DNA from: Candidatus Edwardsbacteria bacterium
GTDB lineage: Bacteria; Edwardsbacteria; AC1; EtOH8
Length of the DNA stretch: 64,000 bases
Assembly (NCBI GenBank): GCA_025453955.1
Contig: JALOPJ010000001.1
Coordinates: forward strand, 12,515-76,514
Direction: 5' to 3'
The notes under the pieces were generated by a model. That model made no database searches. It saw nothing but the letters and a program-made list of their open reading frames with translations, and was not told where the DNA came from. Positions 23,739 to 49,687 of the stretch are shown in pieces. Position 1 is the stretch's first letter; each line of letters begins with the position of its first letter. Position numbers and translations under genes: made by a program.

Positions 23739-24595
23739 CCTCTGCCCCGGGCCTTGCCGATGCAAGCCGCTATCGTCTGCATCATGGTCCGCTTGCGGGG
23801 CAGGCCGGCGATCGCGTCCTCCCGCTCCCGGATCGCTTCATCGATGGCCGGCTGACAGTCGGGGCGTCCCAGGTGGTCCGACAGCAGCCGCAGCATCTCG
23901 ATCTCGCGCAGCCATTTCGACATGGCCGGCGCCCCGCCCCAGGCCCCGGTCTGATGGATCCGGTAGACGGCCATCGTCTCGTTGATGAAACCGATCTTCC
24001 CGTGCCGGGCCGCCAGCACGAAATAGGGCCAGTCGAGGGGCGTGACCCGATCGAACCACGGCGGCAGCACATCGGACCGATGGTTGCGGACCATGCATGA
24101 CGCCGTGTAGATGAAGTTGCGCCGGCACAGGTCCGCGATGGTCAGGGTTGGGGCCAGGCGGCCGCTGGAGCGCCGGCGCCTGAAGAGGTTCGCGACGGTC
24201 CGGGGGTACGACAGGACCACGCGGTGGAAGCACAGCGCATAGTCCGGATTGGCCTCCAGGAAGTCCACCTGCTGCTGCAGCTTGTCGGGATCGGTCCAGT
24301 AGTCGTCGCCTTCCAGACATGCGATGTATCTCCCGGTGCATAATGGCAACGCAGACTCGTACGCATTGCGCATGGCCCCCACGTTCTTTGTCTGGCAGAC
24401 CGCGGTGATCGCACCCGGATGGGTGGCCTGGTATCGCTTGACGATGTCCGTCGTGCCATCGGTCGAGCAGTCATCACCGATGACGAGTCGGTAATCGAAG
24501 CTGGTCCGCTGCATCAACACGCTTTCGATCGCCCGAGCGATGTACCTCGCATGATTGTAGGTGACCATCCATACGCTGACCATGGGCTCGGCCAC
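23735..24595 (-). CDS. Glycosyltransferase family 2
   Basis: VSVWMVTYNHARYIARAIESVLMQ, DDCSTDGT and a DxD-type region (LEGDDYW). Confidence 0.8.
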   Translation of the reverse strand: MAEPMVSVWMVTYNHARYIARAIESVLMQRTSFDYRLVIGDDCSTDGTTDIVKRYQATHPGAITAVCQTKNVGAMRNAYESALPLCTGRYIACLEGDDYWTDPDKLQQQVDFLEANPDYALCFHRVVLSYPRTVANLFRRRRSSGRLAPTLTIADLCRRNFIYTASCMVRNHRSDVLPPWFDRVTPLDWPYFVLAARHGKIGFINETMAVYRIHQTGAWGGAPAMSKWLREIEMLRLLSDHLGRPDCQPAIDEAIREREDAIAGLPRKRTMMQTIAACIGKARGRG

Positions 24596-25278
24596 TAGTA
24601 CAGCCCCCCGTTCACATCGATGCTCGTCCCGGTGATATAGCCGCAGCTGATCAAGTACTTGATCGTTGTCAGGATCTCCGATGGCTCGCCCAACGCCCTG
24701 GACGGGATGGCCCGTTTCACCTCTTCCCGCAATTCCGTCGGCACATCACTGATCATCCCGATGTCGAAATATCCCAGGTTGATGTTGTTGATGGTGATAC
24801 CCCGGTCTGCGTTTTCCGCTGCGATCGCCCTGGTCATCCCCCATAATCCTGCCTTGGAGGCGGCGTACGCGCTCGTCCCGGGCACGGCTTTCTGGGCGAC
24901 GACCGATGACAAGTTAATGATCCTCCCGTAGCGTTGCTCCCGCATCATCGGCAACAAGGCGTTGATGACGTGGAAGGTCCCCACCAGGTTGACCGTGATC
25001 AAACGGGCCCACCGCGCCGGGTCCGCCTTGTGCGCCAGCGCGTTGTAATTCACGCCGGCGCAATTGATCAGCACCATCTTGCTGCCGTTGCGCTTTTTGA
25101 TGGCGGCCGCGAAGGCCGCGACATCCGCTGGATCGGCGACATCGACCCGGCGCATCGAGCCGACGTTTTTGTTCGGCGCCGTGCTGTTGAAAAGGCCGAT
25201 GACATCCTGCTCCTCACGGATGAATTCCCCCATGAGGTACAGCCCGATGCCCTTAGATGCGCCGGTAATGATGATCAT
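24595..25278 (-). CDS. Short-chain dehydrogenase/reductase (FabG-like 3-oxoacyl reductase)
   Basis: Start MIIITGASKGIGLYL (cat at 25276-25278), catalytic YxxxK (YAASKAGL) and NAG motif (NNAG...). The track ORF has a 55-aa spurious extension. Confidence 0.8.
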   Translation of the reverse strand: MIIITGASKGIGLYLMGEFIREEQDVIGLFNSTAPNKNVGSMRRVDVADPADVAAFAAAIKKRNGSKMVLINCAGVNYNALAHKADPARWARLITVNLVGTFHVINALLPMMREQRYGRIINLSSVVAQKAVPGTSAYAASKAGLWGMTRAIAAENADRGITINNINLGYFDIGMISDVPTELREEVKRAIPSRALGEPSEILTTIKYLISCGYITGTSIDVNGGLY

Positions 25279-25300
25279 GGTTGGCACCTTGCATTGGATC

Positions 25301-26293
25301 TCAAGACCATTTGATGATCGAGGCGCCCCACGTCCAGCCTGAGCCGACGGCGGCAAAAAGCACGAGCGTGCCGGGACTGAGCTTCCCCGATCGGTTGACC
25401 TCGTCCAGCAAGATTGGGATCGTTCCTCCCGAGGTGTTCGCATACCGGTCCATGTTGGTCATCACTTTTTCGAATGGCAGCCCGATCATTTCTGCGGTCT
25501 TCTTCAGGATGGCGATGCTCGGTTGATGCGGGATCATGTAATCGATATCAGCGATGCGGAGATTGGTGTCCGAGAGGACCTGGGTGATCGCCTGCGACAG
25601 CACCTTGGTCCCGGTATTGTAGACTTCCCTGCCGTTCATCGTGAAAAACTGCAATCCTTCCCGGATGTTCTCCTCAGTCAGGGGGATCTCGGAGCCGCCC
25701 CCGGGCACGGTGAAGTTGAACTTCCCCCTGCCGTCCGAATAGAGCCGAAAAGCCAAGAACCCTTCGTCGCCGCTGCTGTGCGACAGGACGGCGGCGCCGG
25801 CCCCGTCGCCGAAGAAGACGGCGTCCCTGCTGGTCCAATCCGTGATCCGCGAGAATATGTCGGCCCCGACGACGAGCACGTTGTTGTACACGCCGCTGGC
25901 GATGAACTGCGCGGCCGTCGACATTGCGAAGAGAAAACCCGAGCAGACGGCCGCCAAGTCGAACGCGACCGCGTTGTACGCCTGGATCTTGTCCTGGACG
26001 ATGCAGGCCGTCGACGGGGCTTTCCGGTCAGGCGTGGCGGTCGCGACGATGATCAAGTCGATGTCCGGGGGACGCAACCCAGCGTTCGCGATCGCGGACA
26101 GGCCGGCCTTGGCGGCCAAATCGCTCGTGGTCTCGTTTTCGGCGGCGATCCTTCTTTCCCTGATGCCCAGCGTCGATTGGATCCACGCAGCCGAGGTCGG
26201 CACGATGCTTTCGAGATACTCGTTCGTACAAACCTTTTCGGGGACGTACGAACCCGTCCCCGAGATCTTCACCCTGCGGATGAGCTGTCTCAT
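25301..26293 (-). CDS. fabH: 3-oxoacyl-[ACP] synthase III (KAS III/FabH family)
   Basis: Active-site Cys context (AFDLAAVCSGFLFAM), His (IPHQPSIAIL) and Asn (YANTSGGTIP). Sits inside a sugar-modification gene block. Confidence 0.8.
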   Translation of the reverse strand: MRQLIRRVKISGTGSYVPEKVCTNEYLESIVPTSAAWIQSTLGIRERRIAAENETTSDLAAKAGLSAIANAGLRPPDIDLIIVATATPDRKAPSTACIVQDKIQAYNAVAFDLAAVCSGFLFAMSTAAQFIASGVYNNVLVVGADIFSRITDWTSRDAVFFGDGAGAAVLSHSSGDEGFLAFRLYSDGRGKFNFTVPGGGSEIPLTEENIREGLQFFTMNGREVYNTGTKVLSQAITQVLSDTNLRIADIDYMIPHQPSIAILKKTAEMIGLPFEKVMTNMDRYANTSGGTIPILLDEVNRSGKLSPGTLVLFAAVGSGWTWGASIIKWS

Positions 26294-26844
26294 GGCTCAA
26301 GCTCGTATCGCTGCTTGACCTGGATGTATTCTTCCTGCAGGATGCTCAGCAGCCACGTATTCTTGTGCTCGCCGTTCTTATACACATAGTTCCGCATCAA
26401 TCCCTCCTTGCGAAAGCCGGCTTTTTCCATCAGCTTGATCGCCACGCCATGCTCTTCGAGCGCATGACCGATGCATCGGACCATCCGCAACTCCTCGAAC
26501 ACGTACTTCAAGATCATCAGGGCGGTCTGGAGGCCGTACCCCTTGCCCGATTTCTCGGGCGCCAGCTTGATGCCGCTCCAGAAGCAACTGCCGTTGCGGT
26601 AATCGATATCCGCTATCGACGTGTACCCGATGATGCCGTCGTTGCCGTTTTCGCATATCGCCAGGTACACTGCCGACGGGTTGTCGCCCTGGATGATGTC
26701 CTGCACCCATTTGAGCTCCCGCTCCGGGGACACGAACCGCTTCACGCCCCCGATCTTGTTCTCCATCGCCTCGATCCGCCGCAAGGCGTTGATGAACAGA
26801 GCGTCCTCGGTCCGGAAAGCCCTGAGGTAAATGCCGAATACCAT
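26290..26844 (-). CDS. GNAT family N-acetyltransferase (RimJ/RimL-like)
   Basis: 184 aa with the acetyltransferase fold motif (GKGYGLQTALMILKYVFEELRMVRC). Lower GC than its surroundings. Confidence 0.75.
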   Translation of the reverse strand: MVFGIYLRAFRTEDALFINALRRIEAMENKIGGVKRFVSPERELKWVQDIIQGDNPSAVYLAICENGNDGIIGYTSIADIDYRNGSCFWSGIKLAPEKSGKGYGLQTALMILKYVFEELRMVRCIGHALEEHGVAIKLMEKAGFRKEGLMRNYVYKNGEHKNTWLLSILQEEYIQVKQRYELEP

Positions 26845-26848
26845 GTCG

Positions 26849-27799
26849 TTACCCTCCTATCAACGTGCTGAGTTCTTGGAGATCGGCTTTCCCGTACCGC
26901 TGATCGATGGGCAGCGCCAGCAAGTCGTCCGCCAGATGCCGCTCGAAGGGACTGGGCCGGGCGGCCAGCGACGACGGCCCCCAGTACTGGGCGACGTACA
27001 CCTTGTTCCTGATCAGCGCCTTCCTGATCACCTTCCCGTCGCCGCGCAGGTAGGGATAGATCAACGGGCAGTCGCGCGCCCCCAAGTGTACCCGGAGTTC
27101 GTTCGTTCCGCCCAATCGCGAATGCAGGAACGCGAAATTGCCCCGCCGGATGGTCCTGACGGCCTCATAGTCGATGTTCCGCAACAACGCCAGGGTCAGC
27201 GCCGACATCGCGGCGATGGGCTGCCCGGCCAGTGACCGTTCGTTTCGGACGAAGTCGCGATATCCCTGATCGGGATTGCCGTCGATCCTTTTCAGGAGAT
27301 GCCTCATCCGGTGCCAGGAACTGGCCGGTCGCGGCGCCGCCGCGAGTCTTTTCTCGGTATAGAGATAGCCGCCATCGGGTACGCCGAAAAATTTTCTGGG
27401 CGAATAGAAGGCGTCGACCCCCGGCAGTGGCGTGGCGTAAAACGCCTGGGCGTTGTCGATGATCACGTTGGGGCATACCCGGGCGATCCGCTGCGCCCCG
27501 CGCCCGTGCAGGCCGAAGTAATTGGTATACACGAAGGCCTCCCGGGGCCGGACCAGCGCAACGTCGAACAGGGGTTCCAACCGCTCATCGAGATGGTAGT
27601 ATTGGCACGCCAGCCCCAGCTTCCGGATCGGCTCCCGCATCACATCACAGGTGTACGCTGGCAGGTATACCTTGCGGTACTTCCCGGCCCGCAGGAGGTA
27701 TTCGAAGGCATTGCGGGCGGTGTTCACCCGGATCGCCCCCGGGTGGTACTCTGCGCCCTTGCGCAGTTCCAATTCGAAATACCCGCCGACGGCTCTCAT
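26849..27799 (-). CDS. Short, divergent DegT/DnrJ/EryC1-like (PLP-fold) protein
   Basis: 316 aa. VYLPAYTCDVMREPIRKLGLACQYYHLDE resembles the DegT AAT-fold region, and FYSPRKFFGVPDGGYLYT resembles the SFHATK...EGG PLP-lysine region. It is about 60 aa shorter than canonical DegT. Confidence 0.45.
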   Translation of the reverse strand: MRAVGGYFELELRKGAEYHPGAIRVNTARNAFEYLLRAGKYRKVYLPAYTCDVMREPIRKLGLACQYYHLDERLEPLFDVALVRPREAFVYTNYFGLHGRGAQRIARVCPNVIIDNAQAFYATPLPGVDAFYSPRKFFGVPDGGYLYTEKRLAAAPRPASSWHRMRHLLKRIDGNPDQGYRDFVRNERSLAGQPIAAMSALTLALLRNIDYEAVRTIRRGNFAFLHSRLGGTNELRVHLGARDCPLIYPYLRGDGKVIRKALIRNKVYVAQYWGPSSLAARPSPFERHLADDLLALPIDQRYGKADLQELSTLIGG

Positions 27800-28491
27800 A
27801 TCAGTTCATGCTCGTTCAGCATGCGGCCGATGGCTTCCCGCGAATTGAACATGATCACGTCGATGATGGACAGGTCGGGGACGAACTGCGGGCAATTCTG
27901 CCGATACCGGACGTCCTTGCTCCTGATGAAGCTCAACCGTATCCCGTTGCCTGCGAAATCCTCCTTCCGGTACAGCGACCGGCCGCCGATCGGGTTGATA
28001 TAGTCGGTCGCGCCGTTCAAGCGGCAAATCTCGACCAAGCGCCCGGTCTTCTCCAGTCCCTTCGTCGCCGCTGCATGGCTGCTGCTGGCCTGGAAACTGG
28101 TGTCGATGCCCAGGTAGTGCGATACCTTCGTGACGGATCGCATCGCCAGCTCGCCGATCAGCGTGGTGTCGCTGCGCAAGCAGTCCTCGACCACCGGCCA
28201 GGCCTGCCCGAAAAAGGGCGCCTTCTGGTACGCCTGTTGGATCGTTTTCAACAGCTTGCCCCTGTTGTCGGTGAACTCGACGCGATTGATCGGCGAGAAG
28301 GAACTGGCATTCTTCAATTGGACGGTCAGGTAATGCGGTGCCCCGTCGATGAGGATGCGGTTGCGGTTGATCCAGCCATTCTTGATAAAATTCACATCAT
28401 CATAGAAAACGAACGTATCGGCCGCGCGCACCAGCTGGAAATACCCGAGGTACGGGAAAAAGTACGGCTGCATGACGGCGAGTTTGTTCAT
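27796..28491 (-). CDS. WbqC-like family protein
   Basis: MNKLAVMQPYFFPYLGYFQLVRAADTFVFYDDVNF matches the WbqC family (PF08889) N-terminus. The family is typical of O-antigen clusters that make N-acylated amino sugars. Confidence 0.75.
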   Translation of the reverse strand: MNKLAVMQPYFFPYLGYFQLVRAADTFVFYDDVNFIKNGWINRNRILIDGAPHYLTVQLKNASSFSPINRVEFTDNRGKLLKTIQQAYQKAPFFGQAWPVVEDCLRSDTTLIGELAMRSVTKVSHYLGIDTSFQASSSHAAATKGLEKTGRLVEICRLNGATDYINPIGGRSLYRKEDFAGNGIRLSFIRSKDVRYRQNCPQFVPDLSIIDVIMFNSREAIGRMLNEHELI

Positions 28492-29600
28492 GTCCGCCGC
28501 AACAGCCCGGCCACGTGATCGACGTCGGCCGGATCAAGGTCCGAGTAGAGCGGCAGGCAGATGACCTGCCCGGCCACCCGCTCCGCCACCGGCAGGTTCC
28601 CGGGCGCGGCGCTGGGCAGGCCCTTGTAGGTCGGGAACTGGCTGATCAGCGGGTAAAAGTAGCGGCGGCCGAACACGTTGTGCCGCTTCAGTTCCTCGTA
28701 CACGGCGTCGCGCGAGCGCCCGTAGCAGCCCTGGTCGATCAGGACCGGGAAATAGGGATAACAGTGGACCACCCCGGGCGCGTCCTCGAGGAACGACAAC
28801 CCGGCGATGCCCCGCAGGCGCTCCCGGTAGCGCCGGGCGAGGCCCTGCCGCTTTGCGATCGACCCGTCGACGTATTTCAGCTGCAGCAGGCCCAGCGCCG
28901 CCTGGAACTCGTTCATCTTGGCGTTGATCCCCGGCGCCACCACGGTGGTCTCGCCGGCAAACCCGAAATTCTTCAGGAAATCGATCCGTTGCTTCATGGC
29001 TCCGTCGTGGCAGACGATGGCCCCGCCCTCGAACGTGTGGTAGACCTTGGTGGCGTGGAAGCTCATCACCGACAGGTCGCCGAAGTTCAGCACCGGCTGG
29101 CCACCCACGGTGACGCCGAAGGTGTGGCAGGCGTCGTAGATCAGCTTCAGCCCGTAGGCGTCGGCGATCTTCTGCAGCCGGTCGACCTGGCAGGGGTTGC
29201 CGTACACATGGACCGGCATGATGGCGGTGGTCTGCGGGGTGATGGCCGCCTCCACTTTGTCGGGGTCCAGGTTGAAGTACCCGGGCTCGATGTCGGCGAA
29301 CACCGGCTTGATGTTGTTCCACCAGATGGAGTGGGCGGTGGCCACGAAGCTGAAGGGCGTGGTGATCACCTCGCCGGTGATCCGCAGCGCCTGCAGGGCG
29401 GTGATCAGCGCCAGGGTGCCGTTGGAGAACAGCGAGATGTGCTCGACCCCCAAATAGCGGCACAGCGCCCGCTCGAGTTCCTGGTGGTACTTCCCGTTGT
29501 TGGTCACCCACTTGGTGTCCCAGATGTCCCGCAGGGCGGCCTCGAATTCCTCCAGCGGCGGGAGGAACGGCTGGGTCACGTAGATCGGTTTGCTGGTCAT
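28488..29600 (-). CDS. DegT/DnrJ/EryC1/StrS family sugar aminotransferase
   Basis: IYVTQPFLPPLEEF, GTLALITALQALRI and the PLP lysine in SFHATKVYHTFEGGAIV, 370 aa. Confidence 0.85.
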   Translation of the reverse strand: MTSKPIYVTQPFLPPLEEFEAALRDIWDTKWVTNNGKYHQELERALCRYLGVEHISLFSNGTLALITALQALRITGEVITTPFSFVATAHSIWWNNIKPVFADIEPGYFNLDPDKVEAAITPQTTAIMPVHVYGNPCQVDRLQKIADAYGLKLIYDACHTFGVTVGGQPVLNFGDLSVMSFHATKVYHTFEGGAIVCHDGAMKQRIDFLKNFGFAGETTVVAPGINAKMNEFQAALGLLQLKYVDGSIAKRQGLARRYRERLRGIAGLSFLEDAPGVVHCYPYFPVLIDQGCYGRSRDAVYEELKRHNVFGRRYFYPLISQFPTYKGLPSAAPGNLPVAERVAGQVICLPLYSDLDPADVDHVAGLLRRT

Positions 29601-29659: not shown

Positions 29660-31897
29660 TCACGGTTTCGAGGCGACGTACAGCACCGAGCCTTCGTGGA
29701 TGCCGCAGCGGTCGAACTGCTGCCGGCCGAAGTGATCCACGGCGAGCTCCTCGATGGTGAATCCGACGCTTTGCACTTTCGCGGTGAACCCCGGCTTGGA
29801 GTAGGTCCGGACATGGTCGTCCTGGCCGTAATGGTGCCACCGCTCCGCCGCCGTCAACGGTCCGCCGACCTGGTAATCGCGCTCCAGTCCCAGCTGGATC
29901 GGCACCATCAGGATCGCCCGCCCGCCCGGGGACAGCACCCGGTACAGCTCCCGCATCGCCTTGACGTCATCCTCCACGTGCTCCAGGATGTGCGAGCAGA
30001 TGATGAAATCGTAGTTGCCGTCTGGATAGATCGACATATCGGTGATGTCGACCGTATCGTCGACCCCCGGCATGTGGAGGTCGGCGGTCCGGTGCCGCAC
30101 GCCCCGGTGGGAGCGGATCAACGCCGCCAGCGGCCGGGACGGTGCCATCTCCAGCAGTTGCAGCTCCTTGCCCGCCAGGTATGCGTCGAGGTACAGCGCG
30201 GACAGGCGGTCCCGGTCGCTGGCGCCGCAGGAGGGGCAGGCGTAGGCCAGGATATTGATCGTTTCGCCGTTGAAGATGCTGTGCACATACCGGTGCTTCA
30301 TCCATTGCCGGAAATAGGCGTCAGGCAGGCGCTCGAATCCGCGCACCCTGCGCCGGCACACCGGGCAGTAAAACCGCCGCCGGCCGAACAGCGCGGCCAC
30401 GTCCTTGAGCACGGCGACCGGCACGTACGGCCGCAGCCGGCTTCTCAGTTTTTCCCCCATCCGCATCATGAACGACCTGGCGATCCCTTTCATCTCGAGG
30501 TATTCCGGGTTGCGGACCGTTTCCGATATGGCCACCAGCAGCGCGGCCCCCGATGCCAGCTGGACCGCCAGCAGCAGCGGCCGGCCGGCGTTGATGAAGC
30601 GGGTCTCGAGGAACAGGACGGCGCTGACGACCGCTCCGATGACGAAGGACGGCAGGATGTCCGCGATCTGCTCCCGGGCGCCGTACCGGATCAGCTTGCC
30701 CGAGTAATACCCGTTCAGGAAGAACGCGCCGAAGGAGATGGCGATCAGACCGGCCAGCATCGCCTTGATCCCCATCGCCATCGCCGCCAGGATGATCGGG
30801 ATCACCAGGAGTTTCTTCACGATCTCGATCCTCAGCGACAGGTCGGAGCGACCCTTGACGTGCAGGACGTTCAGGTTCAGGGCGTGCAGCGGATACAGCA
30901 TGGCGGAGAAGCACAGCAGCTGCAAGTACACGGCGGAGGTGGCCCATTGTTCGCCGATCAGCGTGGTGACGAGCGGTTGCGCCACCGCGGCCAGCCCCAT
31001 CATCGAGATGAAGGAAATGAACATGGTGTTCTTGATGATCCGCTGGAACCCGGCCTTCAGCTTGTGCGGCTCATCCTGCAGCTGCGACAGCACCGGGTAG
31101 CTGACCCGCTGGACGACGGTCGTGATGTTCGACGAGGGCAGATTGCTGAACTCCTCGGCCTTGGTGTAGTATCCCAGTTGGGCCGCGCTGAAGTACCGTC
31201 CGATCAGAAGATAGTAGATGTTCTGGTAGACCGTGTTGATCAGGTTGGTGAACAGCAGCTTGTACCCGAACCGGAAATGCTCCTTGAAGGCGCTGAGGCT
31301 GAACGCCGGCAGCGGCTGCCAGCGCGTCCACGCCCACAGCAGCACCGTGGACAACGCCGTCGCGGTGATGGCCTTCCACACCAGGCTCCACACCCCGAAC
31401 CCGCGGTAGGCCATGCCGATCGCCACGGCGCCCGAAGCGGCGGCCGCGATCACCGAGATGGTGGTCTGGGTCCGGAAGTCGATCCGCTTGACGAGGATCG
31501 TCCGGTGGATGATCCCGAGGCTGCCGATCACGAGGCCGACGGCGACCACCCGCACGATCGGGACCAGTCTCGGTTCGTGGAAGAAGACGCTGACCGGCCC
31601 GGCCAGGACATAGAGGGCCAGGTACGCGACGGCGCTCCCGGCCAGGTTGAAGTAGAAGACCGTGCTGTAATCTTCCTGGGTGCAGGACGTTTTCCGGATC
31701 AGCGAGTGGCTGAAGCCGCCGTCGATGACTATCAGGGAAACGGCGACGAACACCGTGACCATGCCGATCAGGCCGAACTCGCCCGGGGACAACAAGCGGG
31801 CCAGGATGATCCCGACGATGAACTGGATGCCGAGGCTGGCGACGTTCTCGGTGACGCTCCAGGCAAGCCCGTCGATCGTCTGCTGCTTCAGGGACAT
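29660..31897 (-). CDS. wzx: Wzx-type polysaccharide flippase (MOP superfamily) fused to a C-terminal SAM-dependent methyltransferase domain with Cys4 Zn-ribbon
   Basis: Residues 1-480 form a 12-TM polysaccharide biosynthesis protein (LAWSVTENVASLGIQFIVGIILARLL...). Residues about 500-745 hold CPVCRRRV...CPSCGAS and a class I MTase core (DFIICSHILEHVEDDVKAMRELYRVLSPGGRAILMVP). A single uninterrupted ORF of 745 aa. Confidence 0.7.
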   Translation of the reverse strand: MSLKQQTIDGLAWSVTENVASLGIQFIVGIILARLLSPGEFGLIGMVTVFVAVSLIVIDGGFSHSLIRKTSCTQEDYSTVFYFNLAGSAVAYLALYVLAGPVSVFFHEPRLVPIVRVVAVGLVIGSLGIIHRTILVKRIDFRTQTTISVIAAAASGAVAIGMAYRGFGVWSLVWKAITATALSTVLLWAWTRWQPLPAFSLSAFKEHFRFGYKLLFTNLINTVYQNIYYLLIGRYFSAAQLGYYTKAEEFSNLPSSNITTVVQRVSYPVLSQLQDEPHKLKAGFQRIIKNTMFISFISMMGLAAVAQPLVTTLIGEQWATSAVYLQLLCFSAMLYPLHALNLNVLHVKGRSDLSLRIEIVKKLLVIPIILAAMAMGIKAMLAGLIAISFGAFFLNGYYSGKLIRYGAREQIADILPSFVIGAVVSAVLFLETRFINAGRPLLLAVQLASGAALLVAISETVRNPEYLEMKGIARSFMMRMGEKLRSRLRPYVPVAVLKDVAALFGRRRFYCPVCRRRVRGFERLPDAYFRQWMKHRYVHSIFNGETINILAYACPSCGASDRDRLSALYLDAYLAGKELQLLEMAPSRPLAALIRSHRGVRHRTADLHMPGVDDTVDITDMSIYPDGNYDFIICSHILEHVEDDVKAMRELYRVLSPGGRAILMVPIQLGLERDYQVGGPLTAAERWHHYGQDDHVRTYSKPGFTAKVQSVGFTIEELAVDHFGRQQFDRCGIHEGSVLYVASKP

Positions 31898-31907
31898 GGG
31901 GACCGCG

Positions 31908-32879
<972 letters not shown>

Positions 32880-33656
32880 TCACCGTTGTGTGTGTGCCGT
32901 CCGGCCGCGGGCCGCACGGAGCAACGCCGCACCCACGATACCAGCCAGCAGGCCAAGGATGGCGCTGGCCGCTGCATGGACGCCCCGCTGGGGCGCGACG
33001 GGCACCGGATCCGTCACCGGGTCACCGACGAAATGGTAGCCACCGAGGTGTTCGAGCGAGCTGCGCGCGCGGCGCAGTTCCGCCTGTAACGCGACCAGGC
33101 CCGCCTCGGCCGCCACGACGTCGCTGGCGCTGCGCCGCGGCGCGCGTACGACCCGTTCCACGGCCTGTTCCAGGTCCCGCTGCCGGGCCTCGGCCTCGGC
33201 CCGGGCCACCGCGACCCGGTCCCGTACGGCCGGCAGATCGCGCAGGTGATCGAGCGCCTTGGCCGACAGCGCCGCCGCCGCACTGGGGTCGTCACGGGAG
33301 ATCACCGTCAGGCGGAACCACGACTCGGCGGCGCCGACCTGGCTGAGCGAAACGCTGTGGCAGAGCGGCAGCAACGGGTCGCCCGGGGCCAGGGCACCGG
33401 ACGGGAACCGCGCCAGCAGCAGCCGGGTCTCGGAGACCGTGAACAGGGGCGCGTCGCAGCCGGCGCTGTCGGCGGCCGGCCAGCGCCAGGCGGCGGGCAG
33501 CTCCACCAGCGACTGGCAGCGGTAGAGCAGCGGCGCCCGCAGGTCGGCCAGCAGCGCGGCGCCGCCGAAGATCACGGCTCCGGCCAGCCCCGCGGGCCAG
33601 CCGCGCCGGGCGGCTCGCCAGAGCGCCGTCAGGTCGATGATCGCGTCAGTGCTCAT
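32880..33656 (-). CDS. Wzz-like chain-length determinant / co-polymerase-like membrane protein
   Basis: 258 aa with TM helices at both ends and a periplasmic coiled-coil region (ARAEAEARQRDLEQAVERV...LQAELRRARSSLEHL), i.e. PCP-like topology. Weak. Confidence 0.35.
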   Translation of the reverse strand: MSTDAIIDLTALWRAARRGWPAGLAGAVIFGGAALLADLRAPLLYRCQSLVELPAAWRWPAADSAGCDAPLFTVSETRLLLARFPSGALAPGDPLLPLCHSVSLSQVGAAESWFRLTVISRDDPSAAAALSAKALDHLRDLPAVRDRVAVARAEAEARQRDLEQAVERVVRAPRRSASDVVAAEAGLVALQAELRRARSSLEHLGGYHFVGDPVTDPVPVAPQRGVHAAASAILGLLAGIVGAALLRAARGRTAHTQR

Positions 33657-33708: not shown

Positions 33709-35088
33709 TCACCGCGCGCCCTTCTGCAGCAGCACCACCGGGATGGTCAGCAGCAGGATCTTGAGGTCCAGCCACAGCGACCAGCTGTCGATGTACTGCA
33801 TGTCCAGCTTCATCCACTCCGTGAAGTCGATGTCGTTGCGCCCGCTGATCTGCCAGAGGCAGGTGATCCCCGGCAGCACGCTGAGCCGGCGCTGCTCGTT
33901 GAGCTTGAACTTCTTGATCTCGTAGGCCGGGAGCGGCCGCGGCCCCACCAGGCTGATCTCGCCCCGCACCACGTTCCACAGCTGCGGCAGCTCGTCCAGG
34001 CTGGCGCGGCGCAGGAACCGGCCGACCGGCGTCAGCCGCGGGTCGTTGGTCAGCTTGAACACCGGCCCGGACATCTCGTTCTGGTCCTCGAGCTTCTCGC
34101 GCAGCTGCTCCGCGCCGGCCACCATCGAACGGAACTTGTAGAGCTGGAACAGCCGGCCGTTGAGGCCGCTGCGAACCTGGCTGAAGATCACCGGGCCCGG
34201 GGAGGTCAGCTTGATCACCAGCGCGATCGCCGCCAGCAGCGGGGACAGCACCACCAGGCCCAGCCCGGCCCCCACCAGGTCGATGGCCCGCTTGATCACG
34301 GTCTCCCAGGCCCTGCGCTTGGCCGAGTCCAGGGTGATCACCGGCAGGCCGAAGAAGTCCTCCATCCGCACCTTGCCGGCGCGGTTCTTGAACCAGTCCG
34401 TCATGATGTGGATGGCGACGCCCCGTTCCTCGCACAGCATGATGTCCGGTTCGATGTCCTGCAGCTTGGTCCGTCCCAGGGTGAAGATGACGTCGTCGAT
34501 CACCATCGTCCCCAGCGCGGCCGCCAGCCGCACCGGGTCGCGGCGCTCCATGGTCTCGACCACCGTGACGCCCCACTCCTCCCGCAGGCGCTCGAACATG
34601 CCCTGCTGCGGCAGCTTGCCGGCGTCCCCCACCACCAGGATATGGCGGCGGTCGAGATCGCGGGCGAACAGCCGGCGGGAGGACAGCAGCAACAGCCGCC
34701 AGACGGTCAGCAGCAGGCAGTTGACGAGGAAGAACAGCAGCACCAGCGCCCGGCTGACCGAGGCCAGTTTCAGGAAGTAGGCGATGGTGATGGCCACCGC
34801 CATGCCGATCAGGTTGGCGCGGTAGGCCGGCAGCAGCGGCAGCGTGTAGCGGCCCAGGATCTTGACGGGGTGGTACTGCCCCATCCGGTAGTAGAGGAAC
34901 CACCACAGCGGCAGCAGCAGCAGCAGGGCCTTCATCGTCACCGCCAGCGGATAGACGCCGCCCTCCTGGAACCACGGCACCGGCAGCGCCACCCGCAGCC
35001 AGTAGGCCGTGAAGAAGGCGACGACGGTGATCACCAGGTCGATCGCCAGCATCGACAGCGACAGGATCGAACGCTTATCACGCAGCAT
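33709..35088 (-). CDS. wbaP: Undecaprenyl-phosphate hexose-1-phosphate transferase (WbaP/CpsE-type initiating sugar transferase)
   Basis: N-terminal TM domain, then the conserved sugar-transferase C-terminus (PVIFSQVRSGLNGRLFQLYKFRSM...GPRPLPAYEIKKF...LPGITCLWQISGRNDIDF). Confidence 0.85.
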   Translation of the reverse strand: MLRDKRSILSLSMLAIDLVITVVAFFTAYWLRVALPVPWFQEGGVYPLAVTMKALLLLLPLWWFLYYRMGQYHPVKILGRYTLPLLPAYRANLIGMAVAITIAYFLKLASVSRALVLLFFLVNCLLLTVWRLLLLSSRRLFARDLDRRHILVVGDAGKLPQQGMFERLREEWGVTVVETMERRDPVRLAAALGTMVIDDVIFTLGRTKLQDIEPDIMLCEERGVAIHIMTDWFKNRAGKVRMEDFFGLPVITLDSAKRRAWETVIKRAIDLVGAGLGLVVLSPLLAAIALVIKLTSPGPVIFSQVRSGLNGRLFQLYKFRSMVAGAEQLREKLEDQNEMSGPVFKLTNDPRLTPVGRFLRRASLDELPQLWNVVRGEISLVGPRPLPAYEIKKFKLNEQRRLSVLPGITCLWQISGRNDIDFTEWMKLDMQYIDSWSLWLDLKILLLTIPVVLLQKGAR

Positions 35089-36189: not shown

Positions 36190-36924
36190 TCATCTCCGAT
36201 CGCCTTGTGGATACGCGATGAAGTAGTATTCTGCACCGGTTTCGAAAAGGTGTTCGAATCTCTCACGGCTGACACCGGTTTTCCCGTTTAGCCATCGATC
36301 CAAGGTCGATACGTTCATACCGCATTCCCGGGTAAGGAAATCGTGGAGGTCCCCAGGGTTCGTCCCATAGTATTCTGCGGATCCAAGACCGCATTCGAAC
36401 ACGATAACGGGTCGGCATCGTTTGATGGTCTCCCGTGCGCCTCGCAGGACGTTGAATTCCCCACCCTCCACATCGAGCTTGATGAATGCGACCGCCTCGT
36501 CGCCTGGCAGGCAGCGGTCGAGGGTGTCTTTCGTGACTTTGATGGTGCGGATGATCGGGTTGGAAATATCGTAGCGTCGGATCTTCAACCCACTGTAGGC
36601 CGGGGCATTCTCGATGAAGTTGAACTCCGCAGTGCCCGTAGCATCACTGAGGGCGGTATCGGATACCGTGACGGACCGATTCCGGTATCTCTCCTGCAGC
36701 TCTGCAAATAGCTCGGGAATCGGTTCGAAGGCGTAATGGTGTCCGTGCGGTGCCTGTTTGATGATAGTGTCCAGCACTTCGCCACGATGACACCCGATGT
36801 CGACGCATGTAGATCCAGCACTCAGGACCCGTTTGATGATCCGTTCAGTTTTCCGGTCGTACTGCATGTTCCGCGTGATGTCAAGATGCAGCAGGTACAG
36901 CAGTTTTTTAACAAGTTTTTTCAT
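36190..36924 (-). CDS. FkbM-family SAM-dependent methyltransferase
   Basis: Start MKKLVKKLLYLL (cat at 36922-36924). Motifs VDIGCHRGEV and IKLDVEGGEFNVLRGA match FkbM-domain methyltransferases. GC is conspicuously low (about 50%). Confidence 0.75.
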   Translation of the reverse strand: MKKLVKKLLYLLHLDITRNMQYDRKTERIIKRVLSAGSTCVDIGCHRGEVLDTIIKQAPHGHHYAFEPIPELFAELQERYRNRSVTVSDTALSDATGTAEFNFIENAPAYSGLKIRRYDISNPIIRTIKVTKDTLDRCLPGDEAVAFIKLDVEGGEFNVLRGARETIKRCRPVIVFECGLGSAEYYGTNPGDLHDFLTRECGMNVSTLDRWLNGKTGVSRERFEHLFETGAEYYFIAYPQGDRR

Positions 36925-37070
36925 TTTGTCCTGTGATCCAAGAAGATTTATCACTCCGCATCGGCTGCGGCAACCCCGGCTGGGTCGCCTCGTGATGCAC
37001 TTTGATGACGGTATTGATGAACAGCCGTGTGACCGTCGCGACATCATCGCGGATGGTCGATGAGCGTTGA

Positions 37071-38366
37071 TCAGGGGCGACGCTGGCCACCATCAGGTTC
37101 CCGCAGCCCGAGGACGTCCAGGAACGTGTTCCGGATCGTACCATCGTCGTGGTGCTTGGCCGAATAGTCGCGCGCCGCCAGGGATAGACGTTTCCGCAGG
37201 CGCACGTCGCCCATCAGTCGGATGACGTGGTCGGCGTATTCATCGTCGGTTTTCGCGATCAAAATGTCCTCGCGGTCCGAGACCGGAAGCCCATCGGCGC
37301 CGGTGGTCGTCGTCACCACCGGCATCCCCAGTGCCAAGGCATCGATGATCTTGACATTGACGCCCGATCCGCTATAGATCGGCGCGATAAATATCTCGGT
37401 CTGGCACACGGCCGACCGATAATCCTCGACGAACCCGGCCAGCACGATGCGATCGTTATGCGCAGCGACAGCCTTCCTGATCTCGGCCGTCGGTTTGGAC
37501 CCGATGATGCGGAACGTGACGTCAGGGTACTGGGAGACGACCGCTGGAAAGATATTCCTGATGAACCGTAGAAGCCCTTCTTCGTTCGGGGAGTAATTGA
37601 GCAGGCCCATGAAGCTGAGGCTGTGCGTGATCGGACGGCACGCTGCCGTGCCTCTCGTCGCTGCAGGCGGAATCCCGACAACCGACGCTTCCGGGTATTC
37701 TCTTTTCAGCCGCGCTGCCTCCACGGGTGATACAAGGATCGTGTGGTCGACGGCCCGGATGTATTTCGCCTCGCTCGCCGCCAAGCGCTTCACCTCACTC
37801 GTCAACAGGATCGTCCGTAGCATCCTGTCGGCGAGGATACCGACGAACGCCGGCAGGTTCTCGGTGAAGGAACCGAGCACCTTCAGGTTGGTACGCAACA
37901 TCCCACGATATCGATCCGAAAGGATGTCCTGCATTAGAAACACTGAACGGGCGGCGCCGGTCTTCAATTCCGAATGGTACTGTACCGTGCGCACCATATC
38001 GAAGCATATGATGTCCGGGCGATGCTCGGCGACCGCGGCTCGCAACCTGCCGAGAGCGGGCCGATCGTAATAGAGGCATTCTTGGAAGCTCTTGTTCCTC
38101 TTCAGCAGCGCATAACATAGGCAGTTGACGGCTGCCGTGAGCGGGGACGGTAGGTCGAGCAAGACGACCTCGCGGATGGACGGCAGCGCGCGGGTCAACT
38201 CCTTGCAGCGTTCCCCGATATCGGTGTCGTGCCGCGAACGGAAGGAACACAACACCACGGTATTGTCGCGACGATCCAGGAACGAAAGGTACTGCATAAG
38301 CACCTTCTCCGCGCCGCTCCTGGGCGGATACGGGAACCTCGTCGATATGAAAAGAACTCGGGTCAT
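37071..38366 (-). CDS. Glycosyltransferase family 4 (GT1-type)
   Basis: MTRVLFISTRFPYPPRSGAEKVLMQ N-terminal GT-B domain and a C-terminal nucleotide-sugar binding domain (GSGVNVKIIDALALGMPVVTT). Confidence 0.8.
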   Translation of the reverse strand: MTRVLFISTRFPYPPRSGAEKVLMQYLSFLDRRDNTVVLCSFRSRHDTDIGERCKELTRALPSIREVVLLDLPSPLTAAVNCLCYALLKRNKSFQECLYYDRPALGRLRAAVAEHRPDIICFDMVRTVQYHSELKTGAARSVFLMQDILSDRYRGMLRTNLKVLGSFTENLPAFVGILADRMLRTILLTSEVKRLAASEAKYIRAVDHTILVSPVEAARLKREYPEASVVGIPPAATRGTAACRPITHSLSFMGLLNYSPNEEGLLRFIRNIFPAVVSQYPDVTFRIIGSKPTAEIRKAVAAHNDRIVLAGFVEDYRSAVCQTEIFIAPIYSGSGVNVKIIDALALGMPVVTTTTGADGLPVSDREDILIAKTDDEYADHVIRLMGDVRLRKRLSLAARDYSAKHHDDGTIRNTFLDVLGLREPDGGQRRP

Positions 38367-39586
38367 GCGGGGGCGGCACTCGCTCGCCGCACTACCTCCT
38401 GGATGATCTTCTCAGTCCGAGAGACGGCGGCGGGCCAACTGTACTCATTCTCCACCAAAGACCGGCCATTGGCGACCAACCGTTGCGCGTGCTCATCATC
38501 GTTCAACAGCGTGACGACCGACCGCGCGAATTCATCGGCATCATCCGCGATCATCAGGTAGCGTCCATTTTCCGCGGTGATACCTTCCGCGCCGATGCTG
38601 GTGGAGACGATGGGGATACCCGCCGCCATGTAATTGAGGATCTTGATCCTCATTCCGCCGCCGACCCACAGCGGGACCACCGCCAGGCGGCAGCGGGCGA
38701 ACATGTCGTCAGGGTTTTCGACAAAACCGGCCACTTCGACGTTCGGGCCGCGGTACCGCTTGAAATGAGTCGGCATGTTGCGGCCGGCCACCACCAGCTT
38801 GGCATCGGGCGCTAGCGCGACGATCTTCGGGAACACACTCCGTAAGAACCACGTTAAACCCTGCCTGTTGGGTAGCCAATCCATCGAGGCCAAGTGGAGG
38901 ATCACCCGCGTCTGGTTCACCCGGCCGCTGCAGCACCGTGAGAGGTCGACGCCCGCCGGCACCACGTGCGTCCTCCCGGCAAGGGTTCTATCCAATGCGA
39001 TGATCCGTTCCCGATCCTCCGTCGTGATGGCTAAAATGGCGTCGAACCTGCCGAGCATCTCACGTTCGTATCTCACCAGTCGCCCGGCCTGCGATCGGTA
39101 GAGGGCGCGCTTGAACGGGTTTCGTTCGTTCGCGGCCAGCCGCCCCATGATAGCACTGTCGACATCATGCTCGCGTAATATGACCGGCAGCTCGGGCCAC
39201 CTGCGTTTTATCGCCGCGGCATAATGCGACATGTGCAGATAGTCAACATGAACGCAATCGACAGCGGTCCGCTCGAGATACGACATGATGTAACCAAGGA
39301 TTTCATCGGACATGTACTTGGTCATGTTATACGGCAAACGCGAGCACAGCGCGTTGGCGAGGAACGACGAGCGCCGGTTGTCCACGTCCCGATAGAAGAC
39401 CATGCAATGCCTAGCTAGTTCCCGCAGCGGCGCTAGATTGACGTTCCGTTCTTGGTCCGGTGCTATCACGACCAGATGGACCTCATGACCGCGGGCGGAG
39501 TATTGGCGGGTAAAATTATAGATGCTGATCTTCCCGCCGTCGATCGGCGGGTACGGCAGGCGGTGGCAGAGCTGGAGAATCTTCAC
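38363..39586 (-). CDS. Glycosyltransferase family 4 (GT1-type)
   Basis: MKILQLCHRLPYPPIDGGKISIYNF, plus a C-terminal GGMRIKILNYMAAGIPIVSTSIGAEG. Confidence 0.8.
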   Translation of the reverse strand: MKILQLCHRLPYPPIDGGKISIYNFTRQYSARGHEVHLVVIAPDQERNVNLAPLRELARHCMVFYRDVDNRRSSFLANALCSRLPYNMTKYMSDEILGYIMSYLERTAVDCVHVDYLHMSHYAAAIKRRWPELPVILREHDVDSAIMGRLAANERNPFKRALYRSQAGRLVRYEREMLGRFDAILAITTEDRERIIALDRTLAGRTHVVPAGVDLSRCCSGRVNQTRVILHLASMDWLPNRQGLTWFLRSVFPKIVALAPDAKLVVAGRNMPTHFKRYRGPNVEVAGFVENPDDMFARCRLAVVPLWVGGGMRIKILNYMAAGIPIVSTSIGAEGITAENGRYLMIADDADEFARSVVTLLNDDEHAQRLVANGRSLVENEYSWPAAVSRTEKIIQEVVRRASAAPA

Positions 39587-40584: not shown

Positions 40585-40588
40585 CGGT

Positions 40589-41545: not shown

Positions 41546-41548
41546 CGT

Positions 41549-42274: not shown

Positions 42275-42324
42275 GTCGTCGCCACCCTGTGCTGGTTGAT
42301 GCATTGCCGGTGTCGCTGGTCGGG

Positions 42325-44449: not shown

Positions 44450-44472
44450 ATTCGCCGTCGCCGCCGCTCCGT

Positions 44473-45732: not shown

Positions 45733-45748
45733 GGTCCCCGGATGCGCT

Positions 45749-47137: not shown

Positions 47138-47158
47138 CGGTGGATCATCTTGTCCCTT

Positions 47159-48355: not shown

Positions 48356-48363
48356 GACCCCTC

Positions 48364-49296: not shown

Positions 49297-49687
49297 GATA
49301 TCCATGTGATACTGCTGTTTGATTGATCCTTGATACCGACAGGTCATTTACCGGGGATGGCCGTGCCTCCCGATACATCCGCCGCAGGTCGAGTGGCCGC
49401 CATCTCGATACGAACCGGTCACGGTCCTACTCGATGTGCGGCTGTATCGAGACCCGGCGGACTACTCGAGGCACGGCCCGGTTCAGCAACAAAAACCGGG
49501 CGACCGTCAGACGGCGCCCGGCAAAGGAATGCGAGGTCCTTTGTCTCCAAAGAAGCTTGGATACGGCGCGCCGTGCCAAAGCGGGGTTTCGAGCAATCCC
49601 GAGCTTTCGAAGGTATGTCAGAATGTCCGAAAACCGCCGACTTTAACGCTCTCGCCCGTACGCTCCCTTGGATTGATAATTGCCGAT

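Follow-up and report, generated by a model that had tools for sequence, protein, structure and literature searches.

A flippase gene and a VioM-family methyltransferase gene joined in one open reading frame in a polysaccharide locus of a Candidatus Edwardsbacteria genome: probably an incidental fusion

Introduction

VioM, encoded on the viosamine island of Pseudomonas syringae pv. tabaci, is the O-methyltransferase of the modified viosamine carried on flagellin, and its activity, the 2-O-methylation of N-(3-hydroxybutanoyl)viosamine, is known only from a P. syringae deletion mutant (PMC3927599). The pathway to which it belongs is a cytoplasmic O-glycosylation of flagellin that involves neither a lipid carrier nor a flippase (PMC3927599). 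Cytoplasmic glycan O-methyltransferase domains that form one protein with a further component of their assembly or export pathway are represented by WsaE of Geobacillus stearothermophilus (PMC2943079) and by an open frame, identified in this study (L052), that includes the exporter ATPase Wzt. Both belong to ABC-transporter-dependent pathways, in which a terminal methyl group caps the chain and the exporter reads the cap. Among MOP flippases, the protein P0257 (963 aa) carries a cytoplasmic modifying-enzyme domain fused at its C-terminus, in this case one that is APH/choline-kinase-like. A literature search returned no report of a flippase-methyltransferase fusion.

Here we describe such a fusion, encoded within a stretch of 64,000 nucleotides (hereafter the window) from a metagenome-assembled genome (MAG) of a Candidatus Edwardsbacteria bacterium. 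Whereas VioM is a free protein of 241 aa, the methyltransferase of the window is attached to a flippase as its C-terminal domain, and, unlike WsaE and Wzt, it is found in a polysaccharide locus of the Wzx/Wzy type.

Results

The fused open reading frame

The fused gene and its parts are located as follows:

29660..31897, minus strand: whole fused open reading frame wzx::vioM-like, 745 aa plus stop (open reading frame list; Pfam flippase and methyltransferase domains)
30470..31897, minus strand: MOP/Wzx-type flippase part, residues 1-476 (Pfam, NCBIfam, AF2, Foldseek and relatives)
30458..30487, minus strand: fusion junction, residues 471-480, GIARSFMMRM (DNA and protein alignment with relatives)
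29660..30460, minus strand: VioM-family methyltransferase part, residues 480-745 (standalone relatives, AF2, class I methyltransferase fold)
30227..30367, minus strand: four-Cys Zn-ribbon-like element, C511, C514 ... C554, C557, followed by an invariant DRDR (Cys invariant in 49 sequences)
30140..30151, minus strand: atypical motif I, E583-M-A585-P586 (class I methyltransferases normally have GxGxG there)

The frame runs from ATG to stop over 745 aa with no stop codon and no change of frame between its halves, as the original prediction had stated, and its product is the public protein P0001. The predicted coordinates were exact, while the strand had to be corrected to minus. The DNA of the gene is base-identical in an NCBI MAG contig of 101 kb, a JGI contig of 53 kb and a Logan contig of 15 kb, although these three assemblies may share sample and reads and are not fully independent confirmation. 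Only one genome, a MAG, carries the fusion. Using Pfam, Polysacc_synt_3 was matched at residues 31-321 (E 4.9e-90, 302 bits against a cutoff of 23), Polysacc_synt with an E value of 5.4e-35 (122 bits, cutoff 28) and Methyltransf_11/23 at residues 617-717 (E about 1e-10, above the gathering scores), values that are far beyond chance for both domains and that bring together the two kinds of Pfam family which the original prediction had proposed to look for. With the AF2 models and the Foldseek matches described below, this bears out the joining of two complete proteins, a MOP flippase and a Zn-ribbon class I methyltransferase. The other strand also has an open reading frame, of 768 aa (29696-32002), which is regarded as a shadow frame due to high GC. 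At a GC3 of 0.91 the fused gene shows good adaptation to the genome that carries it, and the fusion is thus not necessarily of very recent date.

The flippase half

The flippase half passes the Pfam profile thresholds for membership of the Wzx/PST-type MOP flippases and has in common with these (WzxC/TuaB-like proteins and, structurally, MurJ and WzxE) the Polysacc_synt domains, a MurJ-like fold and a WzxE-like core. Its AF2 model (pLDDT 94.3) contains 14 predicted helices and then, spanning the junction, a C-terminal helix (464-488) that is both amphipathic and basic, and in Foldseek it aligned with MurJ at a TM of 0.70-0.75 over about 495 columns and with WzxE at a TMt of about 0.8. From this model the fold is probably the 14-helix MurJ-like one, and the 12 transmembrane segments first predicted are probably wrong; the membrane domain extends to about residue 461-476 (window about 30470-30515) and does not end, as had been expected, at about 30350-30450. 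The basic residues of this half are found in the C-terminal helix and in the loops that follow helices 2, 4 and 6, a distribution which, taken with the helix list, suggests that both termini are inside, as in the MOP fold, whose two lobes of six helices are supplemented by two further helices in MurJ-like members. By the positive-inside rule and the even helix count, the methyltransferase half would be cytoplasmic, in agreement with the original prediction.

The nearest flippase relatives are proteins of 480-490 aa with identities of up to 67%. Neither the 119 nearest relatives nor the 150 best representatives contain the C-terminal enzyme domain of 266 aa that the window flippase has. P0257, which is 41% identical, resembles the window protein in its architecture and differs in the partner domain, which is a methyltransferase in the window. 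The specific NCBIfam equivalogs remained below their cutoffs (PRK10459 with 257/273 bits, Oglyco_Wzx with 317/720 and TuaB with 198/580), so no specific flippase subfamily was assigned; the match to the NCBIfam model 'MOP flippase family protein' scored 257 bits (cutoff 273).

The methyltransferase half

Standalone methyltransferases of 266-267 aa align over 99% of the methyltransferase half with 60-62% identity, and the half is complete from the position of the start codon of these relatives through to their C-terminus. All 36 invariant columns of a 49-sequence family alignment are kept. The motifs quoted in the original prediction, CPVC (511-514), CPSC (554-557), DFIICSHILEHV and LSPGGRAILMVP, were all located in the fused protein, and C32, C35, C75, C78, D82, R83 and R85 (methyltransferase numbering) are invariant in the 49 sequences. 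In the AF2 model of this half (pLDDT 95.1), short strands at methyltransferase residues 30-32 and 37-39, in the Zn-ribbon region, have a pLDDT above 90, which fits two CxxC knuckles on short beta-hairpins in a putative Zn ribbon. One JGI annotation reads 'methyltransferase/rubredoxin'.

When the methyltransferase half was compared with the PDB using Foldseek, the top matches were all class I methyltransferases (SpnF, AtmM, RebM, MitM and PMTs; probability 1.00, TM about 0.45-0.5), of which AtmM and RebM are sugar O-methyltransferases; the model accords with the seven-stranded Rossmann-like fold of this class. A sequence search of the PDB gave weak generic matches only, with E values of 0.0025 or worse. 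The glycine-rich motif I (E/DxGxGxG) is absent, the position reading L-L-E-M-A-P-S-R-P, and the matches to the Pfam methyltransferase profiles leave out roughly the first 50 profile positions. This site has the form (D/E)-x-A-P family-wide, with A106 nearly invariant and P107 invariant, and because genetically active VioM orthologs share it, the missing glycine-rich motif represents a family variant and not decay. D127 (D606 in the full-length protein), the acidic residue with which strand 2 ends, is invariant, and DFIICSHILEHV and LSPGGRAILMVP match Methyltransf_11/23 (motifs II/III).

The junction and its split-gene relatives

The junction was analyzed by aligning the DNA and protein of the window with those of the syntenic relatives L003 (GCA_002412795.1, contig DHVS01000016.1), L005-L007, L009 and L010 (GCA_030655055.1). 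The gene order in these six is Fcl-like, a small gene, flippase (480 aa), methyltransferase (266-267 aa) and DegT, and in every one the flippase and the methyltransferase are encoded by two genes that overlap by 4 nt, an ATGA combining stop and start, as is usual where genes are translationally coupled. In such split pairs (e.g., L003 and L010) the TGA of the flippase overlaps the ATG of the methyltransferase and two proteins result, whereas the window encodes one. The gene order of L003 is also that of the window, with identities of 68% for the flippase, 60% for the methyltransferase, 77% for DegT, 80% for the Fcl-like protein, 71% for KAS III and 50% for the SDR. A chimeric assembly join was rejected, as gene-by-gene synteny with L003 at 60-80% identity continues across the junction, and a large deletion was rejected as the mechanism of fusion, as the conserved motifs YLEMK and VP are separated by 60 nt in the window and by 62 nt in the relatives. 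Defects resembling frameshifts were seen in the assemblies of two relatives, the flippase of L009 being split into 304 and 148 aa and the methyltransferase of L006 being extended to 310 aa.

The flippase tail ahead of the methyltransferase start measures 27 nt in the window and 29 nt in the relatives, and as a result the flippase and methyltransferase frames coincide in the window. The assembled letters across the junction, within window positions 30440-30500, read ...AAAGGGATCGCCAGGTCGTTCATGATGCGGATGGGG.... M480 of the fused protein corresponds to M1 of the relatives' methyltransferase in the alignment, and the tail itself has diverged, with GIARSFMMR in the window and SLINDKLKRR in the relatives. 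Three in-frame Met codons (477, 478 and 480) are kept at the junction; the ATG of the first of them, M477, is overlapped by a TGA that lies in the +1 frame. Neither these internal Met codons nor the starts of the frame itself and of DegT were seen to be preceded by a motif resembling a Shine-Dalgarno sequence.

What is seen here is probably a lineage-specific in-frame fusion of the neighbouring, translationally coupled wzx and vioM-like genes of a Wzx/Wzy-type polysaccharide locus. With a final stretch of wzx that is 27 and not 29 nt long, the flippase frame enters the methyltransferase frame directly and the overlapping TGA is no longer read. The predicted product is a 14-helix MurJ-like flippase whose basic C-terminal helix, on the cytoplasmic side, continues as a complete methyltransferase, beginning with the helical arm at the N-terminus of the enzyme and followed by its Zn ribbon and Rossmann domain.

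A sequencing or assembly artefact, in which a small consensus indel near the 3' end of wzx has merged two true genes, is an unlikely source of the same frame. A length change of 1-2 nt in the interval of ~27 nt would suffice for it, and one base less between K470 and M477 (e.g., in the AAAGGG run) would restore ...KGSPGRS, a stop and a canonical ATGA overlap on M477, but the longest homopolymers in this critical interval are of only 3 nt and short-read consensus indels are rare at sites with such short homopolymers. While frameshift-like defects do occur in the assemblies of L009 and L006, and the source of the window is itself a MAG, three different assemblies are base-identical over the whole frame and the synteny with the relatives rules out a chimeric join.

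The VioM family and the search for further fusions

The window methyltransferase is 45% identical over 237 aa (E 3e-67) to the VioM ortholog of P. caricapapayae (L069), which was identified as such by its length of 241 aa, the gene order vioA-vioM-vioT and the published primers M1/M2, which flank it with three mismatches each. The family signature, consisting of four Cys, DRDR, AP, CSHxLEH and QxDHxRxY together with D127, is kept both in the window methyltransferase and in the Pseudomonas sequences. The window protein has an additional N-terminal helical arm of ~28 residues when compared to VioM, one that is common to other non-Pseudomonas members of the family. Besides family and motif signature, the two have neighbours in common, namely a VioA-type aminotransferase, KAS III (VioS-like), an SDR (VioR-like) and an acyltransferase.

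Across 160 further loci of the methyltransferase family there was no methyltransferase-flippase fusion, and a separate flippase lies directly upstream of the methyltransferase in five. DegT directly adjoins it in 56 (downstream in 41 of 133, upstream in 15 of 138) and is fused to it in one. The conserved partner of the family is the VioA/DegT aminotransferase and not the flippase. Elsewhere, members of the same family occur in single open frames with GT2, GT1, WecG, Wzt (L052) and DegT, and the family thus fuses readily with an adjacent gene, whatever its kind.

A search of 5.8 billion protein clusters with a junction-spanning query returned the query alone, the next match having 392 bits and a coverage of at most 61%, and the recurrence of this domain architecture in databases, which the original prediction had proposed to look for, did not materialize. 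This query was used to judge other fusions in place of the methyltransferase half, a homology search with which had missed the query's own protein. An exhaustive search of representatives with the full-length protein found no second fusion, a weak negative in that the query was hidden behind an unfused representative. Exact junction peptides found no match in a metagenome scan that also missed the JGI contig bearing the gene, so that the sample is evidently absent there; the family alignment was used instead of junction peptides in a second scan. A mixed alignment of the full-length protein with flippases and methyltransferases was discarded, the methyltransferases being misplaced in it with identities to the query down to 10-16%.

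These data bear on functional coupling. The original prediction held that the fusion would couple O-methylation of the lipid-linked repeat unit, or of its terminal residue, to export; in a fuller form, the fusion would have been selected, the tethered enzyme methylating the repeat unit linked to Und-PP at the entrance of the flippase so that only methylated units are exported. Such coupling is improbable. Throughout the close clade the flippase gene is followed by a methyltransferase gene that is translationally coupled to it, but every close ortholog is split, and the original prediction had itself named orthologs that always consist of two genes, as they do in all six syntenic relatives, as speaking against it. 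That the same family shares an open frame with the exporter ATPase Wzt and with glycosyltransferases, and that P0257 has its C-terminal kinase-like domain, would fit coupling, yet the window protein is a singleton among the 5.8 billion clusters, flippase fusions number 0 of 160 family loci, the conserved partner is DegT/VioA and the VioM pathway employs no lipid carrier or flippase. Both halves are intact and the methyltransferase would sit at the cytoplasmic face beside the flippase; it begins, however, at the ancestral start codon with no dedicated linker.

The surrounding locus

Directly downstream of the fused gene is a DegT gene, followed by the rest of a modified-amino-sugar module (24595..28491, minus strand, from the WbqC-like gene to the SDR), in which KAS III, SDR and GNAT all lie within 5 kb of the methyltransferase. 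Three further genes of the locus lie upstream:

33709-35088, minus strand: Bac_transf phosphoglycosyl transferase, upstream (Pfam, NCBIfam)
32880-33656, minus strand: 258-aa protein, upstream, same locus
31908-32870, minus strand: Fcl-like epimerase/reductase, upstream (Pfam, NCBIfam; 80% identical to its L003 counterpart)
28488..29600, minus strand: DegT/VioA-like sugar 4-aminotransferase, directly downstream (DegT_DnrJ_EryC1, E 1.7e-104)
27796-28491, minus strand: WbqC-like protein (Pfam and gene calls)
26849-27799, minus strand: 316-aa protein with no family given (gene calls)
26290-26844, minus strand: GNAT acyltransferase (Pfam)
25301-26293, minus strand: KAS III/VioS-like protein (Pfam; 71% identical to the L003 gene)
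24595-25443, minus strand: SDR/VioR-like protein (Pfam; 50% identical to the L003 gene)

The gene set of this module matches that of the published viosamine island (PMC3927599). The DegT of the window shows 60% identity with the VioA ortholog in L069 and 77% with the DegT of L003. The acyltransferase of the window is a GNAT, accompanied by the WbqC-like and 316-aa genes, whereas L003 and P. syringae have a hexapeptide VioB-type enzyme, and no acp gene was seen at the window locus. Given the differing acyltransferase, the added genes and the lack of a visible acp, the sugar made here may differ from mVio. A Wzx/Wzy-pathway context is provided by the Bac_transf gene, a weak Wzy_C match (21634-22881) and GT2 and GT4 genes. 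Both a Wzx-type flippase (44473-45918) and a Wzy-like gene (45749-47137) occur for a second time in an adjacent cluster of the window.

From the homology to VioM and the VioA/VioS/VioR-like neighbours, the methyltransferase would most likely O-methylate an N-acylated 4-amino-4,6-dideoxyhexose, that is, a sugar of the modified-viosamine type, on the cytoplasmic side, and the methylated sugar would then join the repeat unit exported by the flippase.

The second flippase and Wzy-like gene would also suit a mildly deleterious or inactivating lesion, in which a recent loss of the stop codon impairs the flippase, the methyltransferase or both (e.g., by mis-insertion or for want of free methyltransferase) and the function is dispensable or backed up. 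We regard this as decidedly improbable. The fusion is a singleton and the termination-reinitiation coupling is lost, but the three in-frame Met codons could still give free methyltransferase, and the ~50 mostly helical residues between the last transmembrane helix and the Zn ribbon allow independent folding. The conserved residues are all kept in both domains, the models are of high confidence and no further lesions are present, and there are MOP flippases that carry an enzyme domain at the C-terminus.

Discussion

The fusion of wzx with the vioM-like gene is real but probably an incidental one-off, and not a new export-coupled modification machine. It is presumably tolerated rather than selected, and its product is presumably synthesized in active form. 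Recognition of a methyl cap by Wzt is known in ABC-dependent pathways, and by analogy a VioM-type methyltransferase at the cytoplasmic exit of a 14-helix Wzx might be a functional, selected checkpoint of modification for the export of repeat units linked to Und-PP; we know of no capping logic of the Wzt/WsaE kind in Wzx/Wzy pathways and consider this very improbable indeed.

The comparison assigns a large and nameless family of 'Zn-ribbon class I methyltransferases' to the VioM family, with a strong link to VioA/DegT, and this assignment allows many loci for polysaccharides and glycosylation to be annotated better. Should the fusion protein be produced in active form, it would represent a naturally occurring repeat-unit flippase bearing a glycan-tailoring enzyme and could serve to ask whether proximity to Wzx affects the timing of sugar methylation. 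At present, the evidence mainly shows how a change of 1-2 nt can turn the overlapping stop and start codons of glycan loci into gene fusions.

The Fused Open Reading Frame

In agreement with the original prediction, a flippase and a methyltransferase were found in a single open reading frame (ORF), which also contains the motifs that had been quoted for it:

29660-31897, minus strand, fused flippase-methyltransferase ORF, 745 codons from ATG to stop

In Pfam, residues 31-321 matched Polysacc_synt_3 (E 4.9e-90), residues 10-274 matched Polysacc_synt, and residues 617-717 matched several class I methyltransferase profiles (Methyltransf_11, E 2.4e-10; Methyltransf_23, E 3.6e-10), the latter through their C-terminal half only. 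NCBIfam was concordant, with MOP flippase models covering residues 1-480 and only weak generic methyltransferase matches beyond residue 600. The gene has a GC3 of 0.91, and a 768-aa ORF on its opposite strand is taken to be a shadow ORF, as is common opposite GC-rich genes. An identical public protein exists (P0001, annotated as 'MAG: oligosaccharide flippase family protein [Candidatus Edwardsbacteria bacterium]'), the single member of a protein cluster from one contig, and a base-identical ORF is present in two further assemblies, a 53-kb JGI contig and a 15-kb Logan contig. The exact public protein and these two assemblies confirm the observation. That all three assemblies are identical, and that no long homopolymer lies in the critical 27 nt at the junction, makes an artefact of assembly or sequencing unlikely, although the assemblies may share reads.

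The model of residues 1-500 (pLDDT 94.3) superposes on MurJ, the 14-helix lipid II flippase, over ~495 alignment columns (TM 0.70-0.75) and includes the whole 12-helix core of WzxE (TMt ~0.8 over ~412 columns). This superposition, the helix list and hydropathy point to a flippase with 14 membrane helices and, beyond these, an amphipathic helix of basic character (464-488), and the 12 membrane helices first proposed are probably incorrect. The loops that follow helices 2, 4, and 6 are rich in basic residues, as is the C-terminal helix, and by the positive-inside rule both flippase termini would be cytoplasmic. The methyltransferase would then also be cytoplasmic, as predicted, which agrees with the established MOP topology, in which the termini are cytoplasmic. 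The C-terminal helix continues through the junction and merges with the helical arm at the N-terminus of the methyltransferase. The last membrane helix is thus ~50 residues, most of them helical, away from the Zn ribbon, which should give both domains enough room to fold.

Origin of the Fusion

None of the 119 nearest flippase relatives, which are 477-508 aa long, has a methyltransferase domain, and the closest relatives of the methyltransferase half are likewise free proteins (266-267 aa). As these free proteins cover 99% of a query beginning at M477, there is essentially no linker between the fused halves. Contigs of the closest relatives of either half are syntenic with the window, in the order Fcl-like epimerase, small gene, flippase (480 aa), methyltransferase, DegT aminotransferase, and acyl-chain genes with GT2s. 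The flippase and methyltransferase are separate genes with a 4-nt overlap in 6/6 of these loci (L003, L005, L006, L007, L009, and L010), the flippase ending in ...PYLEMK(S/H)L(I/V)(N/T)D(K/R)L(K/M)(K/R)(R/K) and a TGA that overlaps the methyltransferase ATG.

The window reads ...EYLEMKGIARSFMMR-M480-GEKLRS... across the junction, with the CPVC motif at the same distance from M480 as from M1 of the relatives' methyltransferases. From the conserved K of YLEMK to the methyltransferase ATG there are 27 nt in the window vs. 29 nt in the relatives, which places both genes in one frame. The TCA-TGA overlapping the ATG of M477 persists in the +1 frame of the window, and deletion of one base between K470 and M477 would give back the canonical overlapping gene pair. 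A large deletion was ruled out as the mechanism, with 60 nt from YLEMK to a conserved VP motif in the window vs. 62 nt in the relatives. The flippase tail is too diverged for the exact event to be reconstructed.

It is proposed that wzx and the vioM-like gene are translationally coupled in the relatives via their ATGA overlap, and that a net 2-nt change (equivalent to +1) at the wzx end would have joined the frames in the lineage of the window. The fused protein should keep flipping repeat units and methylating its sugar substrate, the latter activity now being membrane-tethered, and free methyltransferase might also arise from M477, M478, or M480. As a recognizable Shine-Dalgarno motif was seen for none of the genes here, this motif gives no guide to such internal initiation.

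Two relatives show boundary defects of their own, namely a flippase broken into ORFs of 304 and 148 aa (L009:2604-4004) and a methyltransferase lengthened to 310 aa that overlaps DegT (L006:2511-3443). These are probably frameshift errors or variants, and they show the ease with which gene boundaries shift in such loci.

Search for Further Fusions

When 5.8 billion protein clusters were searched with residues 301-745, a query that spans the junction, the matches were its own protein (997 bits, 100% coverage) and no second flippase-methyltransferase fusion, the next matches being free methyltransferases (≤392 bits, ≤61% coverage) and flippases. The methyltransferase half alone did not return the 745-aa protein in a word-indexed homology search, and so single-domain queries of this kind can miss multidomain proteins. 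An exhaustive search of representatives, with 150 flippases among the matches listed, also gave no second fusion, a weak negative given that the query's protein stood behind an unfused representative. Of 160 methyltransferase-family loci fetched at 39-52% identity (80 species-representative genomes and 80 metagenome contigs), 0 had both domains in one open frame; a separate flippase lay directly upstream of the methyltransferase in five (L095, L100, L107, L123, and, weakly, L138) and downstream in one (L059). These negatives make the fusion a singleton, its orthologs being two separate genes in every case, and no paper describing such a fusion was found.

The Surrounding Locus

The locus is of the Wzx/Wzy polysaccharide type, with a Bac_transf initiating transferase, a Wzy-like protein, and GT2/GT4 glycosyltransferases, and from its gene content it is predicted to include a sugar module for an N-acylated, O-methylated 4-amino-4,6-dideoxyhexose. 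The Fcl-like gene is separated from the initiating transferase by a gene for a 258-aa protein without significant family match (32880-33656, minus strand). In the same position, L003 has a protein of 251 aa (25% identity) and L005-L006 have a weak Wzz match, and the window protein may therefore be a divergent chain-length regulator.

A second polysaccharide cluster adjoins the first (36190-49347, minus strand; GC 61% vs. 69-70% in the window flanks). It holds several GT1/GT4 genes, RmlD-like and epimerase genes, and the following:

36190-37047, minus strand, FkbM-type methyltransferase
44473-45918, minus strand, second Wzx-type flippase
45749-47137, minus strand, second Wzy-like gene

The window as a whole has a GC content of 66.6%, vs. 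50-58% in the syntenic relatives and 50-54 in the names of named Edwardsbacteria genomes, which we take to be GC% by naming convention. The 'Candidatus Edwardsbacteria' bin label may be wrong, or the lineage may be very different.

The Methyltransferase Half Belongs to the VioM Family

An alignment of 49 members defines a sharply bounded family with invariant ETxN, DRDR, D127, CSHxLEH, QxDHxRxY, and four Cys (CxxC...CxxC; 511, 514, 554, and 557 of the full-length protein), and a conserved (D/E)xAP where class I enzymes usually carry the GxGxG loop. All invariant residues are retained in the window. The AlphaFold model (pLDDT 95.1) best matches class I methyltransferases in the PDB, among them two that act on sugar oxygens, AtmM and RebM, with TM-scores in the moderate range (0.45-0.5). 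A DegT-type aminotransferase closely related to that of the window is a conserved neighbor, lying directly downstream in 41/133 loci, directly upstream in 15/138, and within 3 kb in 74/160, and being fused to the methyltransferase in L102.

The viosamine island of P. syringae pv. tabaci comprises vioA (aminotransferase, 372 aa), vioM (methyltransferase, 241 aa), vioT, vioS (KAS III), vioB (acyltransferase), vioR (reductase), and acp, and makes Qui4N(3-hydroxybutanoyl)2Me for flagellin; deletion of vioM removes 14 Da per glycan (PMC3927599). In the window, genes for KAS III, an SDR, and an acyltransferase lie a short way downstream. In the locus of Pseudomonas caricapapayae (L069), presumably a member of the P. 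syringae group, the methyltransferase gene lies between the sites of the published vioM primers M1 and M2, each of which has 3 mismatches; this gene encodes exactly 241 aa, with a VioA-like gene before it and a long open frame (>980 aa) after it. Its product shares 45% identity with the methyltransferase half of the window protein (E 3e-67), and the window DegT is 60% identical to the L069 VioA. This identity and the downstream neighbors place the C-terminal half as a VioM-family enzyme in a modified-viosamine-type sugar module. Where the island has a hexapeptide acyltransferase, the window carries a GNAT. It also carries genes for a WbqC-like and a 316-aa protein, and acp was not seen at the locus; its exact sugar may differ.

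The WbqC-like family (PF08889, uncharacterized; 27796-28491, minus strand, in the window) occurs with the VioM-family methyltransferase and DegT in 20/160 loci, and also in the closest relatives L005-L007, which suggests that it helps to modify the amino sugar on which these two act.

Significance of the Fusion

Taken singly, the Wzx/PST-type MOP flippase and the VioM-type methyltransferase are unremarkable representatives of known families, and their covalent combination was not found elsewhere in the databases searched. There are well-known fusions of methyltransferase domains to proteins of glycan assembly, such as WsaE (PMC2943079). Other VioM-family fusions were found in open frames measured stop-to-stop, in which the domain is N- or C-terminal when joined to glycosyltransferases (up to 1293 aa):

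L102:2824-5184, with DegT
L136:2140-3741, P0415, and P0440 (recurrent), with a WecG/TagA transferase
L146 and L148:1456-3729, with GT1
L040, L060, and L061, with GT2

A Bacillota MAG (L052:1666-3714, JAEZRV010000090.1) carries an O-antigen ABC-exporter ATPase (ABC_tran and Wzt_C) and a VioM-family methyltransferase in one open frame, with DegT directly downstream. In ABC-dependent pathways methyl caps are known export signals, and this fusion may mean more than that with Wzx. Another public protein, P0257 (963 aa), has a MOP flippase 41% identical to that of the window with a C-terminal APH/choline-kinase-like domain, which perhaps serves phosphocholine or phospho-sugar decoration.

The proposal that the fusion couples methylation to repeat-unit export is improbable, as it finds no comparative support in a singleton with split orthologs. 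Nothing indicates that tethering to the flippase is required: VioM acts in a pathway without lipid carrier or flippase (PMC3927599), the conserved partner of the family is the aminotransferase, and the family is found fused to whatever adjoins it (GT2, GT1, WecG, Wzt, or DegT), fusions that show a shared pathway and no specific mechanism. A mildly deleterious lesion, tolerable given the second flippase and second Wzy-like gene in the adjacent cluster, is possible but very unlikely, as both domains are intact. The fusion is thus real and explained, and was most likely an incidental event. Of more use is what came with it, namely that a widespread Zn-ribbon methyltransferase family without a name is assigned to VioM and found to be tightly linked to VioA/DegT.
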